A stretch of 64,000 nt of DNA from Candidatus Aenigmatarchaeota archaeon (GCA_016193585.1 JACPRW010000003.1:263303-327302); one strand, 5' to 3'; counted from the stretch's first letter, positions 540 to 51,771 are shown. Program-made: numbers and translations. Notes: a model not told the origin generated them from the sequence alone.

Positions 540-587
540 TATAGGTGAAACAAGTTTTTATACAGGTGCCAGTACTGTTTCGCCATA
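540..587. repeat. Single-hairpin TA-flanked module (variant M)
   Basis: TATAGGTGAAACA...TGTTTCGCCATA; same termini and size as the module at 2458-2508. Confidence 0.6.
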
Positions 588-609
588 AACACGGTTCAGT
601 GACCGAGAA

Positions 610-1047
610 TCAGTGCAATTCCTGCAACTCTTTTCTGAGCGCCGCAAGCTGGTGCTGGAGGTCGGAGAGCGAGCCCTCGATATGACGTATCTCTATCTCG
701 CCCGGCGTTTCGATCTCGAACCCCTTCGGCCTGAGCAGTTCCGAGTCCACTTCAGTAACGGTCTTCTCGAGGCGCTGGACCGTCGCGCGGAGCATCTTGA
801 TCGCGTCAGCGCGCACCGCCTCGACGTCGTTGACGACGCCGAGCAGCTGCTTGACGCCCTCGATGAAGACTTTCATCTCCTGGACGTCGGAAAGGATTTC
901 CCGGTATTTTTCAACCTTGACAAACAGCGGCGCCGACATCGGCGCAGCAGGCTCCTGGACTATTTCCTGCTGCTGTGGCGCGGGATACGGTTCTTCTATG
1001 GCCTGCTTTATCTCCTTGGTCTCCTGCTTTTTTGCATGGAAGAACAT
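610..1047 (-). CDS. Conserved-looking hypothetical coiled-coil protein
   Basis: 145-aa ORF with host-like codon usage, PLFVKVEKY motif. Confidence 0.7.
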   Translation of the reverse strand: MFFHAKKQETKEIKQAIEEPYPAPQQQEIVQEPAAPMSAPLFVKVEKYREILSDVQEMKVFIEGVKQLLGVVNDVEAVRADAIKMLRATVQRLEKTVTEVDSELLRPKGFEIETPGEIEIRHIEGSLSDLQHQLAALRKELQELH

Positions 1048-1199
1048 ACTATGCTATCCTTTTCCGGCATACCTTAAATATCTATGTGCAGAATCCAGTT
1101 AGAATAAGATGGCTGCAAGGAAGTAGAGCTTCTTTGAGCTTTGCTTATCTGAGCATGCCAAAGAACCGTCCAATAAGCCACCTCTGGTGGCTTCTGACG

Positions 1200-1313
1200 T
1201 TGGTTCACTTACACCCAAAAAGCAAAGCTTTTTGGTGCACCGGAAAACTTTGTTTTCCGCGTGTAGCGGACAACAAAAGTAATATGTCGGTATTCTTTTG
1301 TTGGTCCACTATA
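1200..1313. repeat. Composite palindromic repeat: end of module A + double hairpin X1 (1212-1263) + module D (1264-1313)
   Basis: Near-identical to 10510-10623; D also at 21185-21236 in the opposite orientation. Confidence 0.9.
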
Positions 1314-1321
1314 ATCACATT

Positions 1322-1422
1322 GCGATGGTAGTCTAGCTGGTAGGACACGGCCCTGCCAATCTTCTGAAAAACCTCGTGTATGCAGACCGGCCGAGACCCG
1401 GGTTCAAATCCCGGCTGTCGCA
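1322..1422 (+). tRNA. tRNA-Gly(GCC), canonical 37/38 intron (1359-1387)
   Basis: Cloverleaf; anticodon stem CGGCC/GGCCG; BHB central helix CTGC/GCAG. Confidence 0.93.
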
Positions 1423-1471
1423 TTCTCACGTCTAGTTAAGAAAACAAAACAGAAAGAGCAAAAAAGAAAAC

Positions 1472-2104
1472 TTAGACTTTGACTTTCCTGACGTATCGCT
1501 TTCCCACGTCTGACACTGCGTCCTTGAGACCGAGACCGAGCGCAAGCGCAACGCCAAGGCCGACCGACGCTATGACAACGACGAGCACGTTATTGACGAG
1601 GGACGCCGTTATGCCCAGTGTTTCCAGCGCAAGCGCAATGGAAACGTAGAGCACAAAAAAGAAAAGCGTCTTGCCAACAACAGTTGCCCAGAGTTTCTGT
1701 GCCTTCTGGAGATGCGATTTGATGTACTCTGCCAGGACATAACCGACGACCATGATGACTGCTGCGCCGATTACGTTCGGGACAAATCGCCGTACGTCTG
1801 ACATCCAGAGGGTGAGCTGCTCAACCTGCAGCACTGCGACCGCCGCGGTGATGAATGCTATGTAGATCCACCATCGCACGATCATCGAGAACATCGCTGC
1901 AAGGCTGTACACTGGTTTCTGCGTTTCGGAGACGTAGTAATCTAGTCGCACTCTGTCAAGCAGTTCGTGCACGACCCGCCCGACTACCTTGCCGATGACA
2001 AGGCCGATGACGAGCAGGATTACTCCGCCCACGAGATTTGGCAGGAAGACCACAGTTTGCGTTGTCAATTGTGTCAGAATAAGTCCGACATCCTGCAATA
2101 CCAT
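1472..2104 (-). CDS. Membrane protein with conserved TM-helix repeats (MscS-associated/CmpX-like)
   Basis: Two repeats of the PNLVGGVILLVIG / PNVIGAAVIMVVG motif, multiple TM segments. Confidence 0.75.
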   Translation of the reverse strand: MVLQDVGLILTQLTTQTVVFLPNLVGGVILLVIGLVIGKVVGRVVHELLDRVRLDYYVSETQKPVYSLAAMFSMIVRWWIYIAFITAAVAVLQVEQLTLWMSDVRRFVPNVIGAAVIMVVGYVLAEYIKSHLQKAQKLWATVVGKTLFFFVLYVSIALALETLGITASLVNNVLVVVIASVGLGVALALGLGLKDAVSDVGKRYVRKVKV

Positions 2105-2195
2105 ATGGTCACCTACGGTAGTCTTGTGCGGGCCCGTTAATAAAGGTTTCTGTAGTGGCGTAGTGCGGGTAAATTACGAAGGAAAAAAGAAAAGG

Positions 2196-2373
2196 CGCCG
2201 AGAGCAGGAATTCCAGACGGTTTCTTTTGGTTGAGCTTTTCTTTCCAAAAGAAAAGGTCATTTGAACCTGCGCGTGCCAGAGGCACACTAGCTCTCAAGG
2301 ATCGCCTGTCATCTCATGTTGATCAAACCTTGAGTTGGCATCTAGCGCGTTTACCAAGTTCCGCCATCTCGGC
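2196..2373 (-). tRNA. tRNA-Ser(UGA) with introns at 30/31 (2301-2341) and 59/60 (2210-2260)
   Basis: Acceptor GCCGAGA/TCTCGGC, long variable arm, BHB helices CGCT/GGCG and TTCA/TGGA; mature 86 nt. Confidence 0.9.
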
Positions 2374-2402
2374 ATAAGGCGAGAACCTATGGTTCTCTTC
2401 CT

Positions 2403-2552
2403 TGCTCAAAGAACTCAAGTTCTTTGGCATCTCAAAGAAGCTTTGCTTCTTTGCAGATATGGTGAATTGCACTGGTTATGTCCTGATATTATTTGCAATT
2501 CACCTATAGAAAATTGCGCGTTAATACGACATAAGCTGCGCAATTATCTATA
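2403..2552. repeat. Composite palindromic repeat: double hairpin + module H (2458-2508) + module I (2505-2552)
   Basis: H-I pair recurs (reverse complement, with nested inserts) at 42255-42478. Confidence 0.9.
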
Positions 2553-2619
2553 TCAACCTTCTCTCCTAATGAAAATATTAAAAGAAGGTCGTTCCAGCCG
2601 CCATGCGTCATGACAGTCA

Positions 2620-3153
2620 TCATAGCATGACCTTCGGCATCAGTGTGTAGGCGATGGTAGCCTTCTTGTACCGCGCATCGAGGCATACGTCGTCCGAGGC
2701 CGCGTAGCTGGACGCAGCTACATCGAGATAGTGCCGCTCGTCGTTTCTCCCGCTGTATTCTTGGTGGCGGACGCTGATTCTGTATTTAGGCCGCCCCCGG
2801 TGCCCTTCGTCCAGCTGCAGCATCGCGTTTTCTATTGATGCAACAGCATCGGCGTCGTAATCGTTGCGCAGCATGGCATCAAACCATCGCCGCCAGTAGC
2901 TGCCCGGGACATCGGGGTGGCCGGTGAATGCGTCATCCAGAAAATCTGCAATTGCTTTCGGAGGGACGCCATCCATTCGGTCATGGTAGCGCTCCGTGTC
3001 CATGAGCCAGTGTAGGTAATACTCGGTGTGGCAGTCTATGCTCGCACGCACAGAATCGTCAAGGTTCCTGACAAGTTCCTTCAGCTCCCAAAAAGTCATC
3101 TGCGTATCAGCTACCTTCTTCCTTCCTGCAAGCCAGTTTGTTATTGTTCTCAC
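2620..3153 (-). CDS. Hypothetical protein
   Basis: 177-aa ORF, no motif recognised. Confidence 0.6.
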   Translation of the reverse strand: MRTITNWLAGRKKVADTQMTFWELKELVRNLDDSVRASIDCHTEYYLHWLMDTERYHDRMDGVPPKAIADFLDDAFTGHPDVPGSYWRRWFDAMLRNDYDADAVASIENAMLQLDEGHRGRPKYRISVRHQEYSGRNDERHYLDVAASSYAASDDVCLDARYKKATIAYTLMPKVML

Positions 3154-3157
3154 TGAA

Positions 3158-3367
3158 TCACCGGTGCCGTATGGCGCGCAGCAGCTGGTTCTGCACGCTT
3201 TTTGGAACGCTTTCGAAATGAACGATGGTGTCAGACGGGTACTGCTTCATTTTTCTGGTCAGGTGTGATGCCGAGAGGTCGTTGTAGAGAGCATCGCTGT
3301 CGATGATTTTGTACGCTTCTCTTGCTGCATCGTACACGATTCGTACCCTGTGTCTCATACGCTTCAC
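3158..3367 (-). CDS. Small hypothetical protein
   Basis: 69-aa ORF ending 4 bp before the next gene. Confidence 0.5.
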   Translation of the reverse strand: MKRMRHRVRIVYDAAREAYKIIDSDALYNDLSASHLTRKMKQYPSDTIVHFESVPKSVQNQLLRAIRHR

Positions 3368-3500
3368 ACCATGTATTATACGCGTGGGACACTATATACA
3401 TATCAAAGAAATTAGAGGATAAAATACAGTATAAACGGAATTAATAATATTTTTTTAAATAAAAGAAAGCTTTTTATGTACAATTTCCAACAATAATGGC

Positions 3501-3965
3501 ATGATAGACGTCACCGATATGGAGATATTGAAGGAGTTGAGCAAAAATTCCAAGAGAAAAATTCATCAATTGGCAGGCGTGCTGCGCTACCCGCGCTCAA
3601 CCATCCATAACAGAATAAGGAAGATGGAGAAAAGCGGCATCATCAGGACGTACATAGCTGTTATTGACCATGCAAAAATAGGCAGGCCAGTCGCCGCGTT
3701 TGTGCACCTCGTCATAACTTCCAAGCAGAGCGCTCACGAGATTGCAAACAAACTCAAAAGCTTCCCCTACGTCGAGGAGGTGCACGTGGTAACAGGGCAA
3801 TATGATATCATTGCCAAGGTCAGGTTCAAGGATACCGAAGATCTGGGAAAATTCATCTTCGACGAGGAGAAGGGCCTGCGCACCATGGAAGGCGTCGACA
3901 GGACGGAAACGATGATTGTCGTGAACACCGAGAAGGAATACGGTCTCGTCCAGAAAGAAAAGTGA
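3501..3965 (+). CDS. Lrp/AsnC family transcriptional regulator
   Basis: N-terminal HTH (D..ILKEL..NS..STIHNRIRKMEKSGII) plus AsnC ligand domain (VTGQYD). Confidence 0.95.
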   Translation: MIDVTDMEILKELSKNSKRKIHQLAGVLRYPRSTIHNRIRKMEKSGIIRTYIAVIDHAKIGRPVAAFVHLVITSKQSAHEIANKLKSFPYVEEVHVVTGQYDIIAKVRFKDTEDLGKFIFDEEKGLRTMEGVDRTETMIVVNTEKEYGLVQKEK

Positions 3966-3984
3966 GCGCCGGCGGCAGGAATAA

Positions 3985-4269
3985 TTATACCTGCACGTAT
4001 TTCTTATGCGCAGCTTCGGCAGTCATAATTTCAGTAACCTTTACGGTTTTGCTGTTCTCTTCTATAATGTAAAAAGCCCTGTAATCGCCTACCCGCATGC
4101 GGAAAGCGCTCTTCGAAGTGCCTTTAATTTCCTTTTTATCACCAATCCCCTGCCCGGGATACGGGGATTCTTTGAGAAGCCGCAATGATTCCTTTATGTT
4201 TTCCATCCTGCGCTGGCCAAGTGATTCAAGATATTTCAGGGCACCATGCTCAATAAGAACTTTCCACAT
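3985..4269 (-). CDS. relE: RelE/ParE family type II toxin
   Basis: FRMRVGDYRAFY motif, 94 aa, downstream of a small antitoxin with TGATG overlap. Confidence 0.9.
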   Translation of the reverse strand: MWKVLIEHGALKYLESLGQRRMENIKESLRLLKESPYPGQGIGDKKEIKGTSKSAFRMRVGDYRAFYIIEENSKTVKVTEIMTAEAAHKKYVQV

Positions 4270-4460
4270 CAGCCCAGCTCCACAAATCTGCCCGATTTGG
4301 CTATTCTGTGCTGTGTTTCGACAAGGTAATCATTCTTCAGCGCCTCTTCATAGAAAGTAACAAGCCTTTCGATGAGCGAATCGTACGTGTCTTCCATCGT
4401 CCCCAAACTTTTCAGCCTATCGCGGGTCATGGACTCTATCTGGATCGACGTTTTAGCCAT
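4269..4460 (-). CDS. Antitoxin (RHH/CopG-like)
   Basis: TSIQIESMTRDRLKSLG..TYDSLIERL pattern; coupled to the toxin. Confidence 0.8.
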   Translation of the reverse strand: MAKTSIQIESMTRDRLKSLGTMEDTYDSLIERLVTFYEEALKNDYLVETQHRIAKSGRFVELG

Positions 4461-4533
4461 ATCTATAATCTTTATAGAAAATTATATAAACTTATTGCTC
4501 AGCAATGATAATACATAATTGAGGTGTTGTGAG

Positions 4534-4659: not shown

Positions 4660-4699
4660 TTCCTTTAATAAATTGCCGGATGATTTTTAAAGGGGTTCT

Positions 4700-10377: not shown

Positions 10378-10623
10378 TATAGTGAACCAAGTAAATAATC
10401 AGGTATTATAGCAATACAAGGAAATAAACAGGATATATTACTTCCTTGTTTGCTATATGTGAAACAAGAAGCAATATGCCGATGTTATTTTCTTGTTTCA
10501 CTATATAGCTTGGTTCACGTACACCCAAAAAGCAAAGCTTTTTGGTGCACCGGAAAACCTTGTTTTCCGCGTGTAGCGGACAACAAAAGTAATATGTCGG
10601 TATTCTTTTGTTGGTCCACTATA
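10378..10623. repeat. Nested composite repeat: A split by B (10407-10457) + C (10454-10505), then X1 (10522-10573) and D (10574-10623)
   Basis: Each module recurs elsewhere or shares the consensus; junctions are TA/TATA. Confidence 0.9.
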
Positions 10624-10719
10624 AAGCAGGCTTGGTGTTCTGAAAATGAAGTCTCGAGGAAATAAAAGAAGACTTCTTTTCAAAGACACCGTTTATGAGA
10701 TGCATGTGGTGCTCTGAAA

Positions 10720-21184: not shown

Positions 21185-21281
21185 TATAGTGGACCAACAA
21201 AAGAATACCAACATATTACTTTTGTTGTCCGCTATAAGTGAACCAAGATATAATACCTGATTATTTACTTGGTTCACTATA
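21185..21281. repeat. Composite repeat: module D (21185-21236) + intact module A (21235-21281)
   Basis: Reverse complement of the A/D modules at 1200-1313 and 10378-10623, lacking X1. Confidence 0.9.
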
Positions 21282-21299
21282 AGCCGTAATGTAGTAAAG

Positions 21300-21418
21300 C
21301 GCCCCCGGCGCGATTCGAACGCGCGACCCCCTGCTCTCAACAGGAATCTTCATCCGGGCAGAGCCCGTCAGTTCACCTCTAGGAGGCAGGTGCTCTATCC
21401 AAACTGAGCTACAAGGGC
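21300..21418 (-). tRNA. tRNA-Arg(CCU), intron at about 37/38 (21336-21379)
   Basis: Cloverleaf with CCTGC/GCAGG anticodon stem; BHB central helix is poor. Confidence 0.85.
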
Positions 21419-31713: not shown

Positions 31714-31808
31714 TATAGTTAACCAAGTAAAGAATCCGGATATTATAACTTGGTTCACTATATGTGACCAACTTGTGTAATACCTGAATATTAAGTTGGT
31801 CAGCTATA
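31714..31808. repeat. Two single-hairpin modules: A' (31714-31762) + J (31759-31808)
   Basis: TATAG...CTATA termini, shared TATA junction, AATNCNGGATATTAT-like loop. Confidence 0.85.
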
Positions 31809-31923
31809 AAGGTTGATTTTTCCCATGTTAAAAAATTGGTTGTTTCGTTGTTTTTTGTTAAATTTTCGGTTACATAAAGTAGAATTAAAAGGTTTATGAT
31901 TCATGTAATAAAATCTGATTTTA

Positions 31924-32706
31924 ATGACAAAATTAAATCTCATACGTCCTTTAGCTTTCATTGACTTAGAAACTACTGGTCTCAATACGCAACAAGATCG
32001 TATTGTAGATATATGCGTAACAAAAATTTACCCAGATGGAAAAGAAGAATCATTGAGTTCTTTTATTAATCCAACTATACTGATTTCTGTTGAAGCTACA
32101 AATATCCATGGCATAACAAATGCAGATGTTGAAGGTAAACCAGTTTTTGGAGAATTTTCATCACAATTATTTGATTTTATAGATGGATGTGACTTGGCCG
32201 GATTCGGAATAATAAAGTTCGATTTTCCTGTTCTTGAATCTGAATTCAAGAGAGCCGGAATAGTTTTTTCAAAAGATGGCAGACAAATAGTCGATGTTCA
32301 AAATATTTATCACAAATTAGAACCCAGAGATTTAAGTGCCGCACACTTAAGGTACTGTGGCAAGGTTTTAGAAAATGCACATAGAGCACAGTCCGATGTT
32401 AAGGCAACTATAGATGTGCTTGAATCTCAATTGGAACACCACACTAATTTGCCACATGATATTTTCGGTCTGAATGAATTTTGCAACCCGAAAGACCCTA
32501 CGTGGATTGATGAGGACGGAAAATTTGCATGGTTTAAGGACGAGGCTATTGTAAATTTTGGAACTCACAAAAGCAAGACACTTCAATCTATATGTAGGGA
32601 TAAACCTGACTACCTTCAATGGATTATAAGTAAAGATTTCTCACCGAAGGTCAAACAGATAGCTGAAGACGCCCTTCGAGGCAAATTCCCAATACGGCAA
32701 GCATAA
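31924..32706 (+). CDS. DEDDh 3'-5' exonuclease (DnaQ/PolIII epsilon-like), AT-rich
   Basis: FIDLETTG, FD, HRAQSDV; far more AT-rich than neighbours by eye. Confidence 0.92.
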   Translation: MTKLNLIRPLAFIDLETTGLNTQQDRIVDICVTKIYPDGKEESLSSFINPTILISVEATNIHGITNADVEGKPVFGEFSSQLFDFIDGCDLAGFGIIKFDFPVLESEFKRAGIVFSKDGRQIVDVQNIYHKLEPRDLSAAHLRYCGKVLENAHRAQSDVKATIDVLESQLEHHTNLPHDIFGLNEFCNPKDPTWIDEDGKFAWFKDEAIVNFGTHKSKTLQSICRDKPDYLQWIISKDFSPKVKQIAEDALRGKFPIRQA

Positions 32707-32723
32707 AGTTAGGTCTTGTGAAT

Positions 32724-32820
32724 TATAGCTCTACAAGGAAACAACCAAGATATTATTTCCTTGTGAGCTATATGTGAAACCAGTTGTAATATATCCAGAT
32801 TATTTACTGGTTTCACTATA
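32724..32820. repeat. Two single-hairpin modules: K (32724-32772) + F (32769-32820)
   Basis: Same consensus as the other modules. Confidence 0.85.
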
Positions 32821-33073
32821 ATTATAATACATTTGGCATGCTGGTACACGCGCTCAATCATGATCGCGCTATTATGGAGCGTGTGCTGAATGAGATGTAT
32901 GAAATAAACAATTGGAAAGAGAGAAAAGGGCTAAAAGCCGAATGCTGCAAGAGTACTTCTGTCCAAATCGACATGATGCCGAGTTACTGAAAAAAATTCT
33001 TCCGGATATATTCCCACTTTTCACTCTCATACGCTCGGCGCGCTTTTATTACAACGGGAAGCTAATACTACGC

Positions 33074-33715
33074 ATGTTCTCGCTTTCGCCGACGGCGCTC
33101 AACGAGTTCCGTGACTGCCCGCTGTGCTTCTGGCTGCACCGGAGGAAAGGCATCGCTTCTCCCGGCGGCCCCTTGCCGACCATCACCAACGGCTTGGACC
33201 GCGTCATCAAGGAGTACATGAACCGTTACCGTCCGCGCGGCAGCATCCCGCCGTTCCTCGAGGGTAAAGTTCCGGGAAGGCTCATTGAGTTTCTGCCCGC
33301 GACGCTCGCGTGCAGCATCGGCGGCAATACGCTTTCCGGCAGGCTCGACGAATGCCTCGTCATGGACAGCGGCAACCACGCGCCGCTCGACCACAAGACG
33401 CGCGGATTTGCGCTCAAGGACGGCCATGAGGTGCACCCGTCGTACCAGCTGCAGATGGACTGCTATGCGCTGCTCCTGCAACGGAGAGGGCATGCCATCG
33501 GCGACGAGGCGTTCATCGTCTACTACTATCCTGATTTCGGCGAACTGCACCAGGGCATCCCCTTCAGGGTGAGCGTGCACCGGCTCAGGACGAATCCGCG
33601 CCGCGCGGAACAGGTGTTCGCGGATGCGGTAGCGTGCCTGCAGGGAGAGAAGCCCGAGCCCGGAGCCGGCTGCGGCCTGTGCGCGTACGTGGGCGAGCGG
33701 TTGCAACCTTCTTAA
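33074..33715 (+). CDS. PD-(D/E)XK nuclease (RecB/Cas4-like)
   Basis: LSPTALNEFRDCPLCF, GRLDEC..LDHKT, QMDCYA, CGLC; start reassigned. Confidence 0.85.
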   Translation: MFSLSPTALNEFRDCPLCFWLHRRKGIASPGGPLPTITNGLDRVIKEYMNRYRPRGSIPPFLEGKVPGRLIEFLPATLACSIGGNTLSGRLDECLVMDSGNHAPLDHKTRGFALKDGHEVHPSYQLQMDCYALLLQRRGHAIGDEAFIVYYYPDFGELHQGIPFRVSVHRLRTNPRRAEQVFADAVACLQGEKPEPGAGCGLCAYVGERLQPS

Positions 33716-35558: not shown

Positions 35559-35764
35559 ATCAAACCACTCGTCGTAAATCCTGCGCTGATGAAGCTTTTT
35601 AAGTATTGGCATGCTACATAAAAGGAGTGGGAAACAAGTGGGTGAACAAGGATGCGAGTTGAGTGCCCCATTGGCAGTTGATTCCGGATTCTTTAGTGTT
35701 CACGAGATTTCTCTGATAGGAATTATTACGCAGATTATTATCGTCATCGGCCGCTAGGCCATCG

Positions 35765-36058
35765 ATGACGATTGCTCCGCCGCTTTCTTGCGTTTTGAAA
35801 AAATTTCACGGTGGAGACGTCACGCTATACAACGAAGCGAGGTGGAAGATGATGGAAGAAATGAACGGAAACGGCGAGTATCTGGGAAGAAGAACGGTGC
35901 TCTGGGACAACGGCAAGTCACGCGAAATGGACGTATACAGGAGGAACATTCCGCGAGGCGGAAGCGTGTACGAGACGCTGTACATGGCAGCGTCGAACCC
36001 GCATGTGGTAACCCTAAGGTCATTAGATAACAGGACATTCGCGCGCGTGTCGCGGTGA
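35765..36058 (+). CDS. Hypothetical protein
   Basis: 97-aa ORF; start uncertain. Confidence 0.45.
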   Translation: MTIAPPLSCVLKKFHGGDVTLYNEARWKMMEEMNGNGEYLGRRTVLWDNGKSREMDVYRRNIPRGGSVYETLYMAASNPHVVTLRSLDNRTFARVSR

Positions 36059-36072
36059 AGGAGGTGTAAAAC

Positions 36073-36388
36073 ATGGTGGAATCAACAGGAGTGGTGAGTG
36101 GAAGGCCCGCGCGAAGCGTCGTGAAGGTGTATACGACAACTGACGGCAAAGAACCTGCCGCTTGCCTTGGCAGGGGCGCCGGTGTGGCACGAAAACGGTG
36201 CGCCATATGGCGACTTGCACCGCTACGGGATGGAAGAGGAAGTTCCTCTCGTTCGTGCGACTGAAGGCCGCAGGAAAGGCGCGTACATGGTTCCCGACGA
36301 CAAGAAGCCCGATGAGGGAGAAGGCACGTTTCCCAGTGGAGCAGACTTTTACAACATACGCGACAGCGAGCTTGGACTGAGGGGGTAA
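36073..36388 (+). pseudogene. Hypothetical gene with apparent +1 frameshift near 36160
   Basis: Strong SD (GGAGGT) start at 36073; protein-like sequence continues in the next frame to 36388, abutting the next ATG. Confidence 0.4.
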
Positions 36389-36640
36389 ATGATGCAACAG
36401 GCACTTGAAGTCGTAAGGACAACGCGAGAGTACGATCTTCGAAATCCATCATACAACGCAGCAGTGCAGTTGCTTCTGAATGTCAGTAGGCATGCGGTAA
36501 GCTCCCAGGAAAGGCGGCGATTTGGGCTCCTCTTAGTTGAGCATGTACCGCAAGGCTATATGCAAGCATTGGCTCAGTACAATTCAGCTGCACGAGAAGT
36601 TCTCGGCATGTACCCTGCGCCAGATCCGTCACAAGCTTAA
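36389..36640 (+). CDS. Hypothetical protein
   Basis: 83-aa ORF directly after the preceding stop. Confidence 0.5.
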   Translation: MMQQALEVVRTTREYDLRNPSYNAAVQLLLNVSRHAVSSQERRRFGLLLVEHVPQGYMQALAQYNSAAREVLGMYPAPDPSQA

Positions 36641-39543: not shown

Positions 39544-40599
39544 ATGTCCATTGATGATGCAGCGCGTTTCCTCAGCGACCTGAAGCCGGGCGACGAGGTT
39601 GTCATCGTCTTCAACAACGATGCAGACGGCATCTGCTCGTGCATTCTCGTCAAGTCCATCATCCAGTCGCGGACAAAGAAGAAGCCCTATATTATTTCCC
39701 AGCCGATGCCAACAGAGAAGAACCTCATACGGAAAATACAGACGACGCTGCCGACAAAGATAATCTTCCTCGACCTGGCGATGGACCAGCAGGAGGGCGT
39801 TATCAAGAAGCTCAAAGGCATCTGCGACATTATGGTTATAGACCACCACATGGTCATGAAGGACCTCAATGCCAAGGGAATTGTCCACTATAATCCGCGG
39901 TTCGCGGGCAGGGAAATATACCAATCCACCTCGTATTGCGCGTACAGGATATGCTCCCGTATCGAGGACGTGTCAGACCGGTTGTGGATAGCGGCGGTCG
40001 GCATCATCGGGGATTACAACCTCAAGGATTCTCAGGACGTTGTCGCGGAGGTGCGCAAAAAATACAGGAGCCTTGTCGGCGACCGCGAGCTCTACGAGAC
40101 GCCGCTCGGCAGGATAGCGGACATGATAGCGGCATCCAAGGCGACCAGGGCGCTCACGTGCGAGCGCGTTGCGGAAATCCTTGAAAACATGCACAATCCC
40201 GACGAGGTCTTCGGGAACGAGAAGATGGTCGAGGCGTACAAGAGCGTCGAGCTCGAGATGGCAGCCCTTGTTGCAGATGCAGAAAGGAACGCGGAGGTGC
40301 ACAAGGACCTGATGCTGTACGAAATCAAGTCCGCGTACAATCTTGCCTCGCCGTTTTCCACACGTTTCAGCGACAAGTTTCAGGAAAAGTTCGTTGCCGT
40401 ATACGAGCGTATCAATAAAATTGTGAAAATATCGGCGCGGAACCAGTCGGGAACATACGACGTCGCGCACACGCTGAAGCGGGCTGCCCGCGGCCTCAGC
40501 GCATCGGCAGGCGGCCACGACAGGGCGGCAGGAGCTACCGTGAGCGAGAAGGAATGGGAGCAGTTCAAGGTGCGCCTGATAGAAATACTGTCGAGATGA
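39544..40599 (+). CDS. DHH/DHHA1 family phosphoesterase (RecJ-like)
   Basis: DADG, DHH, GGHDRAAG. Confidence 0.88.
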   Translation: MSIDDAARFLSDLKPGDEVVIVFNNDADGICSCILVKSIIQSRTKKKPYIISQPMPTEKNLIRKIQTTLPTKIIFLDLAMDQQEGVIKKLKGICDIMVIDHHMVMKDLNAKGIVHYNPRFAGREIYQSTSYCAYRICSRIEDVSDRLWIAAVGIIGDYNLKDSQDVVAEVRKKYRSLVGDRELYETPLGRIADMIAASKATRALTCERVAEILENMHNPDEVFGNEKMVEAYKSVELEMAALVADAERNAEVHKDLMLYEIKSAYNLASPFSTRFSDKFQEKFVAVYERINKIVKISARNQSGTYDVAHTLKRAARGLSASAGGHDRAAGATVSEKEWEQFKVRLIEILSR

Positions 40600-42254: not shown

Positions 42255-42681
42255 TATAGATAATTGCGCAGCTTATGTCGTATTATAGCAATACAAGGAA
42301 ATAAACACGATATTACTTCCTTGTTTGCTATATGTGAAGCAAATGTATAATATCGGTATTATTTATTTGCTTCACTATAACGCGCAATTTTCTATAGGTG
42401 AATTGCAAATAATATCAGGACATATAGTGAACCAAGTAAATAATCAGGTATCCACTATAACCAGTGCAATTCACCATACATGCAGAAGCAATGCTTCTGC
42501 TGTACAGGTGGAACAGAGTTCCACCATGTATCTTGAAGAGCAAATCTCTTCGAGGTGCTCAAAAACCAAAGGGTTTTTGGCATGCCAAAGAAGCGCAGCT
42601 TCTTTGAGCATGGCAGAAAGCATGCGCTTTCTGAGCACGACACGCGTAATATGGGATACGACGCACGGAGTGCGGGGTATT
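42255..42681. repeat. Large nested array: I[B+E] + H[A/D remnant] + X3 + four-hairpin chain + Z motif
   Basis: Comparison with uninterrupted H-I at 2458-2552 and with 54803-55061. Confidence 0.9.
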
Positions 42682-43408: not shown

Positions 43409-43610
43409 TATAGTGAAGCAAATAAATAATACCGATATTATACATTTGCTTCACATACATGGTAAAGCAAAGCTTTACCTGTACGGGTGAAACGTTGTTT
43501 CACCATGTATAGCAAACAAGGAAGTGATACAAGGTGGATTCCATGAATCCACCTGTACAGGAGAATCTTCGATTCTCCTCGTATCGTGTTTATTTCCTTG
43601 TATTGCTATA
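43409..43610. repeat. Composite E (43409-43457) + X2 (43458-43507) + B interrupted by X5 (43530-43581)
   Basis: Recurs at 44765-44912 (inverted, without X5) and 51634-51771 (truncated). Confidence 0.92.
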
Positions 43611-44764: not shown

Positions 44765-44912
44765 TATAGCAATACAAGGAAATAAACACGATAGTACTTC
44801 CTTGTTTGCTATACATGGTGAAACAACGTTTCACCTGTACAGGTAAAGCTTTGCTTTACCATGTATGTGAAGCAAATGCATAACATAGGTGTTATTTATT
44901 TGCTTCACTATA
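44765..44912. repeat. Composite B + X2 (44814-44863) + E
   Basis: Inverted copy of the 43409 composite. Confidence 0.92.
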
Positions 44913-44938
44913 AACGCATTGCGGGCAATAACGGTTAT

Positions 44939-45901
44939 ATGGCAGCCCTATACACCCCGAAGGTGAAAATTGCAGTTGCGAGCAGCTTCGAGGGCATAGT
45001 AAATAACGGAGCACCGGAATGCGCACTTGTTTCACTGAATGCATATCATGAGCAAAATCCCAGCTCGTTTTTCGAAAGAAAATTAACCGCATCCGAGTTT
45101 AATCAGTCATATCGAAGTGCTGATGCTGTACAGAAGTTTCTTGCGCTGCGACCGCTGGTAGAAGTCGCAGAGGATTACAGAACGGTACTTGACGTGATAG
45201 AACGCTATCCAGCAGAATCCGGTGTATTTGCTGCAAACCCCAATGACGTCAAAACGTATCTGTTTCTTGCGGAAAAGTTCAACGGGCTTAAGCAGGAAAA
45301 GCAGGAAGAAAGGGATGAATTCGGCAAAGGTAAGGACAGCTTTTTCTACAAAGAAAGACGCGCATTGCAGAAAGCCGGCTATGAGGCGTGGCTTAACACG
45401 CAAGCTCCTTTTGATGATGCGTTGCCACAATTCCGCCACTTGGTCGAAACGCAAGTATGGGATGGCGGAGAGCCTGTCAGCGGCTTTTTCCCTCGGTTTG
45501 CGACGTCAAAAGATGAAGCTTCGACATACGCGCTCTGCAGGTTCTACGCGGCGGTGAAGAAACTGGATGTGTCGGACATGGAAGGTACGCGATGTATCAT
45601 CCCGCGGGATGGTATCATAGGCATGGAAACAGTTCCTTCACGCAATAAAGTGCAGCAGCTCGTTGTTATTGCCGACCGTCTGGAAGTCCCGCGAAGCCAG
45701 GTATGGCGGCTGAACGACCGCTACGACCCTCGGCAACAGGAAGAATTATTTTATAACGGATTCGTGTACCAGTTTTTCGTGCCAGGGTATGCAGCACCTG
45801 TTGAAATAGAAAGAGCCCGGCATGACAGGTTTGTCAGGGTTCTTGAAAGAAAAAGCTTTGCACAGCAACTGGCAGCATATGCAGAACAGTGGGGGTTCTA
45901 G
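44939..45901 (+). CDS. Degenerate HAD-like protein
   Basis: Resembles 47312-48019 (LRPLVEVAEDY, FATSKD) but motif I reads SFEG; start reassigned (the ORF-track N-terminus is repeat-derived). Confidence 0.6.
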   Translation: MAALYTPKVKIAVASSFEGIVNNGAPECALVSLNAYHEQNPSSFFERKLTASEFNQSYRSADAVQKFLALRPLVEVAEDYRTVLDVIERYPAESGVFAANPNDVKTYLFLAEKFNGLKQEKQEERDEFGKGKDSFFYKERRALQKAGYEAWLNTQAPFDDALPQFRHLVETQVWDGGEPVSGFFPRFATSKDEASTYALCRFYAAVKKLDVSDMEGTRCIIPRDGIIGMETVPSRNKVQQLVVIADRLEVPRSQVWRLNDRYDPRQQEELFYNGFVYQFFVPGYAAPVEIERARHDRFVRVLERKSFAQQLAAYAEQWGF

Positions 45902-48019: not shown

Positions 48020-48024
48020 ATCGA

Positions 48025-49017
48025 TCAAAATAAGTGTTTGTTGACAAGCTTCGCCCCGTCTCCGGGCTTGCACAGGATTGTTTTCTGCACGCCCTTCAGC
48101 CTGAGCAGTCTTTTTGTTATTTCCCGTTCGTCCTTCTGCAGGCACATGACCTTCACCTGCGGTCCGCCGTCGATGGTGAAGTAGGCCTCAATCCCCTGCT
48201 CGCGCATTGCCATGACTGCGTGCATCACCTCTACTGTTTCAGGAATCCAGTAGAGTATTGCCGGCTTTGTCGTCATCATGAGCGCGTGCATCTTGAGGCA
48301 GTTCGCTTCAGCCGTTGAGCCAACCAGCGCAAAGTCCCTTGACCGTATTCCTTTCCTTATGATGTTCAGGTCGTCCTCAACAGTTCTGAGCCATCCGCCA
48401 TAGAACGGGCATGTTTCGACCGTTTGCTTCATGCCTGCCCTGCTGCCGGTTTTCTTTTTTTCTGTTGAAACAATAGTCGCAATCATTCTGAACTCCGGCC
48501 AGTAGTTCTTGCGCACGATGCTTTCCGCAAAACTGTCCGAGCCGTCAGGCATGACGCCTTTGTGCCATTCAACAAAGCCCTCGCATATGCTTCGCGAAGC
48601 CGATCCAGACCCCTGCCGTGCCAGTATGCCCAACTCCTTCTCGTGTAACGAAAGCCCCGCTGCTTCAGCAGCAGCCACCGTCAGCGCCGCAAGCCCGCTC
48701 GCGCTGCTCGCCAGGCCTGCAGCAACAGGAAAGTTGCTTTCGCTCACGACCTTCGCTTTCTCCTGTATGCCTGCAAGCTTCCGTATCCGTTCAATATGCC
48801 CCAGTATATTTTTCTCGTCCTTCTTCAGTTCTTCGTCGTTGATGACGATGGTATCGCTCCGGTACTTTTCCGAGAACTCGGCGGTCGTTGTCGTCGACAG
48901 CCCGTCGCAGCTCATGCTGATGGACGAGTTCTGCGGCAGGATGAGCGCGTCGTCCCGCTTGCCCCAGTACTTGACGAGCGCGATGTTCGCGTTTGCCGTT
49001 GCCGTCGCCTTTGCCAT
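48025..49017 (-). CDS. mvaD: Diphosphomevalonate decarboxylase
   Basis: NIALVKYWGKRD, GLASSASG, GSGSASRS, TIDGGPQ; start reassigned. Confidence 0.95.
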   Translation of the reverse strand: MAKATATANANIALVKYWGKRDDALILPQNSSISMSCDGLSTTTTAEFSEKYRSDTIVINDEELKKDEKNILGHIERIRKLAGIQEKAKVVSESNFPVAAGLASSASGLAALTVAAAEAAGLSLHEKELGILARQGSGSASRSICEGFVEWHKGVMPDGSDSFAESIVRKNYWPEFRMIATIVSTEKKKTGSRAGMKQTVETCPFYGGWLRTVEDDLNIIRKGIRSRDFALVGSTAEANCLKMHALMMTTKPAILYWIPETVEVMHAVMAMREQGIEAYFTIDGGPQVKVMCLQKDEREITKRLLRLKGVQKTILCKPGDGAKLVNKHLF

Positions 49018-49145
49018 AACGAACCTTTTTGCAGAAAGTAATATAAAATGCACGGGAGGGGAATCAGGAATAGGAGAGAACATGAGGAAGGGTTTTGGAG
49101 TCGGAGAGAACTAATAGTATGTTCAGTTTATTTTGGAACATTTTA

Positions 49146-49509
49146 TCTTGAATGCCTTGAAAATTGCTGCCATCGTACAAAAGACTTCCGTGAAGTCTTT
49201 TGGCGACTTAGGTTAATCCTCGATTAACCTCAAGTCAGGCAGCAGATGCAAAGAAAAGCAACGCTTTTCTTGCACTGGAAGACTGCACGTCTTCCTTGTG
49301 CAACAAGGCATTCGGGATCTTCAAAGAGCAGAGCTCTTTGAGATCTCAAAAACCTCTGGTTTTTGCAGATGCCATGCTCCACGGAAACCACCGACTGCAG
49401 TCGGTGGTATAGAGGAGCATATCATGCTGAACATACAGTATAGCAGGTTCGAACGAAAAGTTCCAGTATTATTCGAACCTGCTATAAGGGAAACCTGAGG
49501 TTTCCCTTG
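49146..49509. repeat. Continuous ~360-bp array of hairpins including an AGATCT-linked double hairpin (49317-49370) and module L (49439-49486)
   Basis: At least nine perfect or near-perfect stems read directly from the sequence. Confidence 0.85.
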
Positions 49510-49518
49510 GGTCCTCAA

Positions 49519-49636
49519 TGGGCCCGGCAGGAATTGAACCTGCGACCTTCGCCGTTTCTTCAACACTTTCCTTCTGAAAGCTTAGTGAAGGCGACATTTG
49601 GTAGACACTCGTCTCATACCACTAGACTACAGGCCC
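49519..49636 (-). tRNA. tRNA-Val(CAC) with introns at about 23/24 (49598-49614) and 36/37 (49556-49584)
   Basis: BHB helices GGTA/TACC and CTTC/GAAG; only these boundaries give a 7-nt anticodon loop; mature 72 nt. Confidence 0.88.
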
Positions 49637-49711
49637 TCAGCACTGCTTGTTCTAGCATTCTATTAAAGCCTACCGGATACTGATTTAAAAATTCACTCTG
49701 ATGAGTAGAAT

Positions 49712-50362
49712 GTGTATAGCGTGAAAAAATTCGACATGCTTGTCTCCGTCTACGTCTTCTGCATCGCGGCAACCGAGCTCATGGGCGCCAAGACCTTTCC
49801 TCTGGGGGAGTTCTTCGGGATTTCCTTCAACGCGAGCGTTGCCATTCTTGTCTTGCCGCTGGTTTTCACGATAAACGACATTATAACAGAAGTGCACGGA
49901 AAGGAGCGGGCGCGGAGCGTCATCATGTCCGGGCTGCTCGTCGTCGCCCTCATTTTGCTGTTCTCGCTCGTGGCCACCAGCCTTCCGCCTTCGACGCGGT
50001 TCCAGAAATCAGAAGCGGCGTATGACGCGGTATTCGGATTGTCCGCCAGAATCGCCGCGGCAAGCCTGACGGCATTTGCCGTTGCAGAATTCCTCGATGT
50101 CATTATCTTTGTCAGGATGCGGCAGGCTTTCGGCAAAAAGGCGCTGTGGCTGCGGAACAACGCCTCCAACTTTATCTCCCAGTTTGCGGATACGGCCATA
50201 TTCATGTTCCTTGCATTTTACGCTATCGACAAGCCGTTCAGCGAAAATGCCGTTTTCTTGTTCGGGCTCATCCTTCCGTACTGGATACTGAAATGCCTCA
50301 TGTCCGTGCTCGAAACGCCGTTGGTCTATCTGGGAGTTCGATGGCTGAAAAAAGGCGAGTGA
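49712..50362 (+). CDS. yhhQ: Queuosine precursor transporter (YhhQ/Vut_1 family)
   Basis: DIITEVHG..RAR, LWLRNNAS..SQ..DT. Confidence 0.88.
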   Translation: MYSVKKFDMLVSVYVFCIAATELMGAKTFPLGEFFGISFNASVAILVLPLVFTINDIITEVHGKERARSVIMSGLLVVALILLFSLVATSLPPSTRFQKSEAAYDAVFGLSARIAAASLTAFAVAEFLDVIIFVRMRQAFGKKALWLRNNASNFISQFADTAIFMFLAFYAIDKPFSENAVFLFGLILPYWILKCLMSVLETPLVYLGVRWLKKGE

Positions 50363-50887
50363 ATGAAAGTTGTCATGGTCGCGGTTTCATCCCTTGACGG
50401 GAAAATAACCAGGGGCAGCAGCGCCGACATATACCAATGGACATCCGGGGAGGATGCCGCCCTGTTCTCCTCGTTGGTGAAGAAACATAATCTCATTATA
50501 ATGGGCAGGAAAACGTACGAGGCAGCAAGGAAGAAAATCAGGTTCTCGCCCGGCAAACTCAGGGTTGTGCTCACGAAAAGTCCGGGAAACTTCAAGGACA
50601 AAGAAGGGCTCGAATTTACCGGCAAGCATCCAATAAAGCTGCTCAGAGATATGGAGGCAAGGGGTTACGAAAGGGCCCTTGTGGCAGGAGGTGGAGCCGT
50701 AAATGCATTGTTTCTGAAAAATAATCTTGTAGACGAAGTCTGGCTTACCGTTGAGCCCTGCATGTTCGGGAAGGGAAAATCACTGGTAGAAGGCGCCGTG
50801 AAGACGCAGCTTGTTCTCATCGGGACTAAAAAACTCAACAAGCGCGGCACACTGCATTTAAAGTATAAGGTCAAGTCTAAGGCGTGA
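50363..50887 (+). CDS. Dihydrofolate reductase / RibD C-terminal family protein
   Basis: SLDGKI, IMGRKTY, VAGGG, DEVWLTVEP..FGKG. Confidence 0.88.
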   Translation: MKVVMVAVSSLDGKITRGSSADIYQWTSGEDAALFSSLVKKHNLIIMGRKTYEAARKKIRFSPGKLRVVLTKSPGNFKDKEGLEFTGKHPIKLLRDMEARGYERALVAGGGAVNALFLKNNLVDEVWLTVEPCMFGKGKSLVEGAVKTQLVLIGTKKLNKRGTLHLKYKVKSKA

Positions 50888-51654
50888 AGGTTTCGCCTGT
50901 AAAAACAGGAAAGATTGTCGCCGGGCAGGACCTCTATTCTTTGCTCGACACGTGCCTGGAAACATGCGAAGAAAAATCACTGCTCGCCATCACGTCCAAG
51001 ATAGTTGCTCTATGCGAAGGCCGCATCGCCAGCATGGATGCGGACAAAAAAGCCCTTATACAGCAGGAAGCCGAATATTATCTGCCTCATGAAGAAAGCA
51101 GATACAACACCACGCTTGCGATAAAAGGGAACATCATCGTCCCTGCTGCTGGCGTGGACGAATCGAATGGCAACGGCTGCTACGTGCTGTGGCCTTTGGA
51201 CCCGCAGAAATCAGCGAATGAGATACGGTCGTACCTGCGCAAAAGATTCTTTCTGAAGCATGCCGGCGTGCTTATAACCGACAGCAGGACAACGCCGCTG
51301 AGACGGGGGACGACGGGTGTCGGCATCGCGCATAGCGGCTTTTCCGCCATCAAAAATTACATAGGTCGTAAAGACGTATTCGGCCGTACGATGAAGATAA
51401 CCAGGGCAAACATACTGGATGCTCTGGCAGCAGCAGCCGTCGTCGTTATGGGAGAAGGTGCAGAACAGACGCCCCTTGCTGTACTCGAGGACATCCCGTT
51501 AGTGGCGTTTCAGGAAAGGAACCCGACACGAAAAGAGCTGCAAGACCTGAGCATAAGCATCGAGGACGACCTGTACGCGCCTATCCTCAAAAGGGCGAAA
51601 TGGAAGAAGGGAGGGCAATATAAAAAATCTTTTTATAGTGAAGCAAATAAATAA
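50884..51654 (+). CDS. CofE-like gamma-glutamyl ligase (putative folate polyglutamylation, FolC2-like)
   Basis: ITSKIVALCEG, AGVDESN, ITDSRTTPLRRG, GEG.EQTP; C-terminal YSEANK* comes from repeat E. Confidence 0.85.
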   Translation: MKVSPVKTGKIVAGQDLYSLLDTCLETCEEKSLLAITSKIVALCEGRIASMDADKKALIQQEAEYYLPHEESRYNTTLAIKGNIIVPAAGVDESNGNGCYVLWPLDPQKSANEIRSYLRKRFFLKHAGVLITDSRTTPLRRGTTGVGIAHSGFSAIKNYIGRKDVFGRTMKITRANILDALAAAAVVVMGEGAEQTPLAVLEDIPLVAFQERNPTRKELQDLSISIEDDLYAPILKRAKWKKGGQYKKSFYSEANK

Positions 51655-51771
51655 TACCGATATTATACATTTGCTTCACATACATGGTAAAGCAAAGCTT
51701 TACCTGTACAGGTGAAACGTTGTTTCACCATGTATAGCAAACAAGGAAGTAATACAAGGTGGATTCCATGA
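51634..51771. repeat. Truncated composite E + X2 + B/X5
   Basis: Near-identical to 43409-43546. Confidence 0.92.

Follow-up and report, generated by a model that had tools for sequence, protein, structure and literature searches.

The window, by which is meant the whole stretch of about 64 kb of DNA that was analysed, comes from an uncultured archaeon related to Aenigmatarchaeota (DPANN); the genomes nearest to it are Aenigmatarchaeota MAGs. It harbors 13 types of hairpin at 12 loci (A, B, D, E, F, G, H, I, J, K, L, M, plus a degenerate type at position 540), all of them 48-52-bp palindromes of the form TATAG...CTATA. A preliminary description had reported at least 12 palindromes at 12 loci, and all those it quoted are present, exactly or within a few bases. 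The pattern TATAG-N(32-52)-CTATA has 9 exact matches in the window, compared to 0.12 ± 0.36 in shuffles. One of the nine, at 39837-39892 in a DHH-family gene, is due to chance and does not form a hairpin. Folded as single strands, the hairpins reach -12.6 to -22 kcal/mol, and DNA folding of whole doublets, the paired units described below, gives z = -7.7 to -9.7 relative to shuffles.

The window also contains a second TA-inserting family, consisting of ~50-bp double mini-hairpins with the form TA·CAYG...CRTG·TA (dots mark the element ends). In each, two mini-hairpins flank a TGTACA or TGCA centre, and the ends read 5'-CA...TG-3'. This family was absent from the preliminary description. The ends are two-fold symmetric in both families (TATAG/CTATA in the doublets, CAYG/CRTG in the mini family). 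With units of 95-99 bp and ~50 bp, at least 12 loci in 64 kb and no ORF, the elements are short, non-coding and multi-copy, as expected of MITEs. They are intergenic, beside tRNA genes and at gene ends, where stop codons come from them. A search of the window against Rfam matched no family to the elements: only tRNAs reached the gathering score, and permissive settings gave just sub-threshold miRNA-hairpin matches, far under threshold and attributable to chance. The features are as follows (dh, double mini-hairpin).

540..588, plus strand: solo degenerate H-like hairpin (TATAGGTGAAACAAG...CTGTTTCGCCATA), recognized from the sequence, with a weak covariance-model match at 520-587 (22 bits).
1200..1313, minus strand: composite that joins 10 nt remaining from hairpin A to a double mini-hairpin (TA·CACCC...CGCGTG·TA, ~1208-1267) and to hairpin D (1266-1313), with a tRNA gene 8 nt beyond its end.
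2458..2552, minus strand: intact doublet I+H (covariance model 63.9 bits), the "empty" reference for both insertions nested in 42256-42478.
10381..10625, minus strand: composite A...D doublet, with a whole doublet B+M (10407-10507, plus strand) at a TA in the loop of A and a double mini-hairpin (~10518-10577) within the A/D junction.
21185..21283, plus strand: intact doublet D+A (covariance model 82 bits; z = -9.7), 14 nt past the 3' end of an intron-containing tRNA.
31714..31808, plus strand: intact doublet J+K (66 bits), upstream of an AT-rich DEDDh exonuclease gene; Logan contigs break within the doublet.
32724..32820, plus strand: intact doublet F+G (103 bits), downstream of the same gene.
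42256..42478, plus strand: doublet I+H with two nested insertions and exact restoration; the loop TA of I is occupied by doublet B+E (42284-42379, 109 bits), and that of H by a 35-bp deletion derivative, A-left/D-right (42425-42459).
42476..42640, no strand assigned: double mini-hairpin TA·CATGCAGAAGC...CCACCATG·TA (~42476-42532), then a four-mini-hairpin array (42533-42640).
43409..43610, minus strand: composite B-dh-E, with one dh (~43453-43512) in the junction TA and another (~43531-43588) in the loop TA of B; its terminal TATAG gives a GHMP-kinase ORF its stop codon.
44765..44913, plus strand: composite B-dh-E (58.7 bits), with the dh (~44809-44868) in the junction TA.
49178..49486, no strand assigned: array of six perfect mini-hairpins (49178-49408), then solo hairpin L (49439-49486), adjoining an intron-containing tRNA.
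51634..51771, minus strand: copy of the 43409-43610 composite (E, a double mini-hairpin, the start of B and the start of a second mini-hairpin), ending abruptly at 51771; the final six codons (YSEANK) and stop codon of ORF 50884-51654 lie inside it.
54803..54912, no strand assigned: second copy of the four-mini-hairpin array at 42533-42640.

Anatomy and covariation of the doublet

The recurring unit is a doublet of ~96 bp, in which a left hairpin, distinguished by a conserved bulged T, is joined through a constant CTATA-N-GTGAA junction to a perfect right hairpin. Its formula is TA·TAG-(left: 8 bp + bulged T + 8 bp + ~15-nt AT-rich loop)-CTATA-N-(right: perfect 11-13-bp stem)-CTA·TA. The arrangement was found in 6/6 intact cases in the window, at 12/12 metagenome loci and in all copies of the public MAG GW2011_AR5, and it does not support the earlier proposal of the ~50-bp single hairpin as the mobile unit. 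The ends TATAG...CTATA are invariant, and the outer arms of B/E are 73% complementary over 33 nt, forming terminal inverted repeats; past TATAG and CAA the two outer arms have little in common.

The two arms of the stems co-vary, by Watson-Crick changes only. The preliminary description had recognized this covariation, together with a loop that is semi-conserved and one base left unpaired, both of which were seen. When 14 doublets are aligned by fitting to the model, pairing holds in 95.3% of cells, and 14 of the 26 pairs changed on both sides. This level was reached by 0/500 shuffles, and sliding the partners by 1-3 columns left 39-47% paired. Stem changes comprise 32 double changes versus 4 single changes of the G:T type. 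Near-identical copies of E within the window differ by a compensatory change (ATAATA/TATTAT at 42334, ATAACA/TGTTAT at 44867). At position 9 of the left hairpin, types B and F and AR5 types a, b and d keep the bulged T, and the neighbouring pairs vary. The covariance model scores 100 bits on one strand versus 40-50 on the other, and the left and right loops read as inverted copies, a call of orientation that the quasi-palindromic loops make soft. Doublets occur on both strands of the 64 kb (~6 plus and ~5 minus covariance-model matches) with no orientation bias.

It seems unlikely that the mobile unit is instead a single hairpin of ~48 bp, made of two abutting inverted repeats, and that doublets result from a preference for inserting at the terminal TA of a resident monomer. 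Left hairpin B is paired with at least seven different right partners, and the modules are therefore combinatorial, as a mobile monomer would predict; the solo hairpins at 49439-49486 and 540-588 are also consistent with it. Each arm resembles a complete Correia inverted repeat, so that one hairpin would equal two repeats with nothing between them. However, the CTATA-N-GTGAA junction has a constant length that is one base short of two complete TA-sharing monomers, and bulged left and perfect right hairpins form separate conserved classes in the window, the JGI contigs and AR5. A partner hairpin accompanies all 12 metagenome copies of B, and each loop insertion observed in another element consists of an entire doublet or of the 35-bp deletion derivative, which keeps just both outer ends.

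Nested insertions and the distribution of sites

When the insert and a single TA are taken out, element I is recovered at 47/47 bases and H at 45/45, the two filled/empty pairs singled out in the preliminary description. Two more nested events, into A (10381-10520) and into B (43511-43610), restore the interrupted copy with one mismatch each. Seven of nine nested events are cleanly bounded by TA...TA, two of them restoring the host copy exactly; the D/A-junction mini-hairpin and one event in L040 lack a clean TA gain. All intact copies have TA flanks, and one junction event has no net gain of TA. The target is a symmetric T-TA-A, with T at -1 in 17/23 sites and A at +1 in 16/23. Because both element ends read TATA, a true 2-bp duplication is indistinguishable from duplication-free insertion beside TA; the former is presumed here.

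Archaeal metagenome contigs of 34-53% GC carry the same elements, as does GW2011_AR5, and never at orthologous sites. Left hairpin B is common to these contigs, with near-identical copies at unrelated loci. Orthologous loci in relatives, whose comparison had been proposed, reveal lineage-specific insertion: syntenic loci of GW2011_AR5 (L036) and L061 have element-free intergenic spacers of 21-95 bp where the window has clusters of 150-390 bp, and the Nop56/fibrillarin spacer is empty in the window and filled in AR5. L060 likewise has no doublet, in a locus that spans just part of the window synteny. These results uphold the proposal that a DPANN archaeon harbors a small mobile family that is multi-copy, non-coding and flanked by TA. 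The further suggestion that the family is active was not borne out: its copies are near-identical, but read-derived contigs gave no clean empty allele.

That the hairpins no longer move and are structural or regulatory motifs kept by host selection (palindromes bound by proteins, modules of promoters or terminators, or small RNAs), their spread being ancient or due to recombination, is very improbable. Such selection would be in keeping with the conservation of structure across lineages whose housekeeping proteins are just ~57% identical, with the placing of elements between genes, beside tRNA genes and at gene ends to which they supply stop codons, and with the absence of element polymorphism among more than nine sequencing runs. 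Against it are the complete difference in insertion sites between related genomes, the exact TA boundaries of nested copies, and near-identical copies at unrelated loci and in genomes of very different GC. No Rfam family matches, and wobble pairs are nearly absent, which argues against selection at the RNA level.

It is hardly credible that the palindromes were produced by assembly. Short-read contigs from more than nine runs break at the elements, as expected of dispersed repeats, and Logan contig L057 joins other DNA precisely at an element end. Within the composite at 51634-51771, the window and a Logan contig differ by a deletion of ~130 bp; a read-derived contig has the remainder of B and 56 nt absent from the window. 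However, the same architecture and consistent covariation occur in independent assemblies, namely the JGI contigs, Logan contigs that read into the ends and the 2011-era GW2011_AR5 MAG.

The mobilising enzyme

The best explanation, which we hold with slightly better than even confidence, is that these are Correia-like, TA-duplicating non-autonomous transposons (MITEs) of an Aenigmatarchaeota-like archaeon, moved in trans by a DDE transposase. Flanking by TA upon integration is the behaviour of cut-and-paste DDE transposases, namely IS630/Tc1-mariner and some IS5/IS427. Both families would integrate into the symmetric T-TA-A and be left with a TA on either side. This symmetry points to an ordinary double-strand mechanism, and the enzyme is probably of the DDE class. 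Since the elements, at 27-35% GC against 54% for the genome, have conserved TA-rich motifs in their loops and at their ends, they would be the best targets around, which would explain why insertions nest in loops and junctions and why composite arrays grow. Hairpin modules would reassort among doublets, and the family would have spread between co-resident archaeal lineages.

As the preliminary description had stated, there is no transposase in the window: the ORFs scanned contain no detectable transposase domain (no DDE_3, no HTH_Tnp). No autonomous element with the same ends was found in the ~64 kb window or in ~250 kb of loci from carrier genomes. Nor was a transposase found next to copies in these fetched loci; the only one seen is an IS66, in L042, a family that makes 8-bp duplications. 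IS630 elements are present in archaea (PMC13343696). Several observations sit uneasily with a DDE enzyme. A double-strand enzyme that binds terminal inverted repeats gives no reason for hairpin ends, yet the stems co-vary and the bulged T is kept. The outer arms are dissimilar past TATAG/CAA, two of nine nested events are not clean, and no transposase was found.

A considerably less likely alternative is movement in single-stranded form, driven by an HUH (Y1) enzyme that reads hairpins, on the model of REP/REPIN-RAYT systems or of the two-hairpin PATEs derived from IS200/IS605. Such an enzyme would read the stem, bulged T and loop together with the TATAG at the hairpin foot, and insert beside TA without true duplication. 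The earlier suggestion that the enzyme may read the fold fits the hairpin kept at each end by compensatory Watson-Crick changes and the bulged T, which is conserved (B, F, AR5 a, b, d) despite differing flanking pairs; in IS608, TnpA recognizes an extrahelical T of the hairpins. The conserved short motif at the foot of the hairpin is comparable to the GTAG of REPs, and insertions favour hairpin loops, which are single-stranded in an extruded palindrome. The alternating hairpin orientation recalls BIMEs and REPINs as treated in PMC2817692 and bioRxiv 10.1101/2021.07.10.451892, and IS200/IS605 is the most widespread IS family of archaea (PMC13343696). However, the T-TA-A target is as strongly constrained at the downstream base as at the upstream one, which speaks against reading of the fold and for a double-strand DDE enzyme. 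The ends are two-fold symmetric with cleavage points at the stem base, not outside it; ~11 doublets are without orientation bias; and most nested events have a net gain of one TA. The window ORFs scanned and the fetched loci yielded no Y1_Tnp match and no other Y1/HUH gene. The DEDDh exonuclease gene (31924-32706) is the only one bracketed by doublets, and no RAYT gene is bracketed in the available DNA.

Comparison with known systems

The doublet family is apparently undescribed. No published description of the elements was found in the literature, in agreement with the preliminary description, and four element arm sequences have no occurrence in searchable literature. The elements share with archaeal MITEs, such as the SM elements of Sulfolobus and those of a MITE-Tracker census that includes DPANN, their non-autonomous nature; high MITE densities are reported for some DPANN genomes, and the passages of the census that were consulted hold no analysis of architecture or target (PMC11602168).

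PATEs resemble the doublets in being short, non-coding and mainly a left-end plus a right-end hairpin. Their hairpins are subterminal and in the same orientation on one strand, and they insert 3' of an asymmetric 4-5-nt target with strand bias and no duplication. In contrast, the target here is a symmetric T-TA-A and the hairpins are inverted, a soft call given the quasi-palindromic loops. REPs, to our knowledge, are known only from bacteria; they make no target duplication, and the system is defined by a single-copy RAYT gene flanked by REPs. Here most nested events gain a TA, ends and target are symmetric, and no RAYT gene was seen. The likeness to REPs, BIMEs and REPINs, as portrayed in PMC2817692 and bioRxiv 10.1101/2021.07.10.451892, lies in variable-stem hairpins with a conserved foot motif (TATAG here), a bulge or mismatch, inverted pairs, arrays, extragenic placing and long structural conservation.

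Bacterial MITEs derived from IS630/Tc1-mariner (such as MITEEc1/ERIC, RUP and Nezha) have in common with the present elements TA flanks, a symmetric NTAN-type target, terminal inverted symmetry, the 5'-CA...TG-3' ends of the mini family and a transposase supplied in trans. They differ in that no parent IS with matching ends is seen here and each end is a palindrome kept by compensatory change; sizes of ~96 and ~50 bp are at the lower limit for MITEs.

The Correia elements of Neisseria (CREE/NEMIS) are likewise small, non-coding, intergenic, multi-copy and TA-targeting, with no known mobilising enzyme in either case (PMC2649163). CREE are single units of 104-157 bp (104-108 or 153-157 bp, rarely 69-73 bp), in which a core is flanked by 26-bp inverted repeats (PMC2649163); the longer forms carry an IHF site, and the host is bacterial. 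In contrast, the elements described here have no core and consist of two abutting self-folding hairpins of 95-99 bp. The resemblance in sequence noted earlier for D holds at 16/19 bases between its outer arm and the published TATAGTGGATTAACAAAAA. Past TATAG the similarity is statistically borderline: the best alignment score is 14, compared to 9.1 ± 1.8 in shuffles, of which 7/500 reach 14, and when all arms are averaged the score lacks significance (51/500). Both families have ends that begin TATAGTGGA..., the arm of H shares ATCAGGACA with Correia, and TCAGG and CCGG variants occur at the same relative place in both.

Structure of the doublet

The hairpins of the window are built as pairs. 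Thirteen hairpin types (A, B, D to M and a degenerate one at 540) are present at 12 loci, with folding energies of -12.6 to -22 kcal/mol, and whole units folded as DNA give z-scores of -7.7 to -9.7. The pattern TATAG-N(32-52)-CTATA occurs nine times in the window, compared to 0.12 expected; one of the nine is a chance match within a coding region. Every sequence quoted in the preliminary description is present, as are the features it ascribed to the hairpins: a semi-conserved loop, with AAATAAnCnGATATTA-like motifs common to the loops, and a single unpaired base in several stems. Types B, D and F are bulged, and I and J contain a mismatch. The mobile unit proposed there, a single hairpin of approximately 50 bp, is not supported as stated; the hairpins occur as fixed doublets, which in the window are I+H, B+M, B+E, D+A, J+K and F+G. 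A search of the JGI metagenome collection with the left arm of B (24 nt) returned 12 loci, and a second hairpin directly follows B in all 12. The junction of the two hairpins is CTATA-N-GTGAA without exception. The left hairpin consists of 8 bp, a bulged T, a further 8 bp and the loop, while the stem of the right hairpin is perfect and its loop reads as an inverse copy of the left one. With a covariance model built on the 96-nt doublet, the scan recovered all window copies at 50-109 bits and exactly one copy per JGI locus. The real unit is the doublet.

Whole doublets and the covariance model replaced an alignment of single hairpins with MAFFT, which broke the pairing and from which RNAalifold gave no pairs. 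A crude ungapped hairpin scan of loci from relatives was likewise too strict; because bulges shift the register, it missed the copies in the public genome GW2011_AR5 that were later found by the covariance model.

In an alignment of 14 distinct doublets, pairing holds in 95.3% of cells, and 14 of 26 pairs have changed on both sides. None of 500 shuffles reached the observed pairing, a count that is not a probability because the alignment is model-fitted and the sequences are related; the control in which partners were slid by 1-3 columns is nevertheless clear, leaving 39-47% paired. Stem changes comprise 32 double changes and only four single changes of the wobble type. The constraint on the stems is therefore Watson-Crick complementarity, that is, of DNA rather than RNA. 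An RNA-gene reading of the elements was rejected, as no Rfam family matches them and wobble pairs are nearly absent. The bulged T at position 9 is retained in types B and F and in GW2011_AR5 types a, b and d, with variation in the pairs on either side. Under simple "palindrome correction" through template switching the bulged T would be lost, yet it persists. The hairpin fold itself seems to matter.

Nested insertions and the proposed mode of transposition

Doublets are inserted into one another. The B+E doublet lies in the loop TA of hairpin I, and removal of the insert with one TA restores the copy at 2458-2552 in 47 of 47 bases. A 35-bp derivative, containing only the outer ends of an A...D doublet, lies in the loop TA of H, and its removal with one TA restores 45 of 45 bases. 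The two filled and empty pairs reported in the preliminary description are thus both exact. Restoration with one mismatch each was found for B+M in the loop of A and for a mini-hairpin in the loop of B. The latter insert belongs to a second TA-inserting family of double mini-hairpins of approximately 50 bp, which have two 8-10-bp stems, 3-nt loops, a TGTACA or TGCA centre and CAYG...CRTG ends, and are flanked on both sides by TA.

Double mini-hairpins in the window (approximate positions)
1208-1267, double mini-hairpin
10518-10577, double mini-hairpin
42476-42532, double mini-hairpin
43453-43512, double mini-hairpin
43531-43588, double mini-hairpin
44809-44868, double mini-hairpin
51678-51737, double mini-hairpin

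Double mini-hairpins are also present in GW2011_AR5 and in two JGI loci (L040 and L051). Further insertions of this family occupy the B loop of L051, the loop of a left hairpin in GW2011_AR5 and the TA of the B/E junction. Seven of nine nested events have clean TA...TA borders; an event at a D/A junction has no net TA gain, and one in L040 is without the right-hand TA. The composite at 43409-43610, nested parts included, is copied again at 51634-51771. Perfect mini-hairpins number 37 in the window, compared to about three expected (~12-fold), and form arrays with 8-12-bp stems, often CAAAGAAGC-like, and mostly 3-nt loops. One four-hairpin array of 110 bp is present in two copies (42531-42640 and 54803-54912).

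Arrays of perfect mini-hairpins in the window
49178-49408, mini-hairpin array
42533-42640, mini-hairpin array
54803-54979, mini-hairpin array
1175-1259, mini-hairpin array
2407-2453, mini-hairpin array

At 23 insertion sites, the flanking TA is preceded by T in 17 and followed by A in 16; thus, the preferred target is the palindrome T-TA-A. The elements have a GC content of 27-35%, and their conserved ATATTA loop and TATA end motifs supply sites of the T-TA-A type, which is enough to explain the self-targeting.

In line with the preliminary description, no transposase of any kind was found in the window, nor beside the copies at the other loci examined. The best reading, which is somewhat favored, is that the elements would be moved in trans by a TA-duplicating, dimeric, double-strand DDE transposase, similar to IS630/Tc1-mariner or possibly to IS5/IS427. 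This reading is based on three features: ends and target alike are two-fold symmetric, the mini-hairpin family terminates in 5'-CA...TG-3', and the doublets show no orientation bias (about six on the plus strand versus five on the minus strand in the window). A DDE mechanism does not explain why the ends are hairpins with a conserved bulge. Such ends would be favored by a HUH enzyme that recognizes hairpins (RAYT or IS200/IS605 TnpA), a rival mechanism considered unlikely. It is also rather doubtful, though conceivable, that the elements are the archaeal counterpart of REPIN-like "structure-defined" replicators. The enzyme, of a type so far unrecognized in DPANN archaea, would then read the fold (stem, extrahelical T and loop) instead of the sequence and insert wherever other hairpins expose a TA in their loops. 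The hairpin population that it serves would diversify by compensatory change and be exchanged among co-resident DPANN lineages. The idea of fold reading is the interesting part of the finding.

Candidate enzymes were also sought among neighboring genes. A 3.5-kb archaeal metagenome contig (L042) encodes, at 976-2771, an AbrB-like ORF and a transposase of the IS66 family, 400-870 bp away from a doublet. IS66 insertions create 8-bp duplications, and this transposase was for that reason judged to be probably unrelated to the doublets.

The elements in the host genome and in other genomes

The window is archaeal chromosome with a GC content of about 54%, encoding IleRS, HisRS, a histidine operon, mevalonate-pathway genes, Nop56/fibrillarin, type IV pilus-like genes and intron-containing tRNAs. 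The source contig measures 345,983 bp. Within the GTDB species set, the window is nearest to MAGs of Candidatus Aenigmatarchaeota (GHMP kinase at most 60% identical in amino acids), so the host had been correctly named as a DPANN archaeon. Hairpin elements account for ~3.6% of the 64 kb.

Genes beside elements
31924-32706, DEDDh (DnaQ-like) exonuclease gene in an AT-rich, low-GC patch, flanked by two complete doublets of the same orientation (31714-32820)
32912-33715, PD-(D/E)XK ORF, weakly Cas4-like, after the exonuclease gene
44939-45898, orphan ORF of 320 aa adjoining a doublet, between two GHMP kinases of the mevalonate cluster
21297-21418, minus strand, tRNA gene of ~122 nt with a long intervening sequence, two G:U pairs in the acceptor stem and a clear T arm

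The DEDDh exonuclease region resembles a foreign gene that the elements either brought in or frame. It has no homologue in the syntenic locus of GW2011_AR5, and in short-read assemblies the gene forms its own contig of 989 bp. The exonuclease and the PD-(D/E)XK ORF were considered as mobilizing enzymes and found no support. The orphan ORF is ruled out as a novel transposase; it is a conserved single-copy Aenigmatarchaeota protein with syntenic neighbors in many related assemblies. It has no Pfam, NCBIfam or PDB match, a homologue was not detected in the syntenic GW2011_AR5 locus, and its position suggests it may be a lineage-specific enzyme of the mevalonate pathway. Two host ORFs end inside elements: the stop codon of a GHMP kinase is supplied by the terminal TATAG of B (43590-43610), and the last six codons (YSEANK) and stop codon of an F420-ligase-like ORF lie within element E (51634-51654). 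The tRNA gene was missed by ARAGORN and by Rfam at the gathering score; introns are also present in three other tRNAs of the window. The ~925 bp between an MBF1-like gene and IleRS (35612-36537) contain neither a doublet nor, even with permissive settings, an Rfam match, and no ORF there is convincing. DPANN genomes are tiny and streamlined, yet the elements at gene ends, the stop codons they supply, the foreign-looking gene they bracket and their adjacency to tRNA genes visibly shape this one.

Element positions differ between genomes at orthologous sites. The syntenic GW2011_AR5 locus (L036) has at least six doublets in 21 kb, with none at the positions occupied in the window, and its Nop56/fibrillarin spacer is filled where that of the window is empty. 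At S17e/Nop56, NUDIX/GHMP and GHMP/MK, where the window has clusters of 150-390 bp, the GW2011_AR5 spacers measure 95, 27 and 7 bp, and those of a closer relative (L061, 69% identity in a neighboring protein) measure 51, 21 and 40 bp. Neither L061 nor L060, a locus that covers part of this synteny, contains doublets, and doublets are absent from 26 of 28 other loci from relatives. A DHH-family gene in L061 (3432-5891) has an intein with a LAGLIDADG domain that is lacking in its ortholog in the window (39544-40599). The same B hairpin is found in archaeal contigs of 34-38%, 43-48% and 53% GC, which carry FttA, a PriS/PriL fusion and pilus genes; therefore, the family is shared among different genomes. 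No IMG/VR viral contig matched the right-hairpin pattern, the B arm or the left-hairpin pattern.

The same strain as the window is contained in Logan assemblies of SRR12113418-31. The family had been called active, which is not supported as stated; the search of these read-derived contigs recovered no clean empty alleles, as short-read contigs simply terminate inside the elements. A same-strain contig (L054, 13150-13291) has ~130 bp that are missing from the window at 51771: the remainder of a mini-hairpin and of hairpin B, followed by 56 nt of unique DNA. Either the deletion is a genuine variant, or the assembly of the window has collapsed at this point. A Logan contig from SRR12113419 (L057, 1-300) is 100% identical to the window until the terminal TA of H (2458-2460) and continues into unrelated coding DNA with no doublet; the junction represents a variant, rearranged or empty, or else a k-mer chimera. 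Another assembly of the same population (L001, 10445-10753) departs from the window directly after the tRNA 3' end (21297 downwards), where it carries another surface-protein-like gene and lacks a doublet. Strains vary at this tRNA flank.

Relation to known repeat families

As far as we can tell the hairpin family is undescribed, as had been surmised; four arm sequences searched in the searchable literature gave no match. As a small natural data set, it combines numerous stem variants with a conserved bulge and loop self-targeting, and it lends itself to the question of whether DNA shape, instead of sequence, is recognized in transposition. Present in several lineages of very different GC, the family marks recent exchange of DNA between co-resident episymbiotic archaea. 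Such repeats also fragment short-read DPANN assemblies.

The likeness of D to the end of the Correia element of Neisseria, proposed in the preliminary description, holds against the published sequence but is statistically borderline. Compared to the published repeat, TATAGTGGATTAACAAAAATCAGGACAA (PMC5039591; bioRxiv 10.1101/2021.07.10.451892), the outer arm of D is identical at 16 of the first 19 bases, and ATCAGGACA is common to the repeat and the arm of H. When TATAG was kept constant, the best score was reached by 7 of 500 shuffles, and the average across all arms was not significant. The resemblance of these arms may be regarded as a lead, not as membership, and the Correia-like ends could help trace the enzyme that moves Correia elements. 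A deep link to these orphan elements is conceivable. Correia elements likewise target TA, and their mobilizing mechanism is undetermined (PMC2649163); unlike the family described here, they are built with a core and not as hairpin doublets. The family is best filed as a new structural variant among MITEs, Correia-like and TA-targeting, in DPANN archaea.
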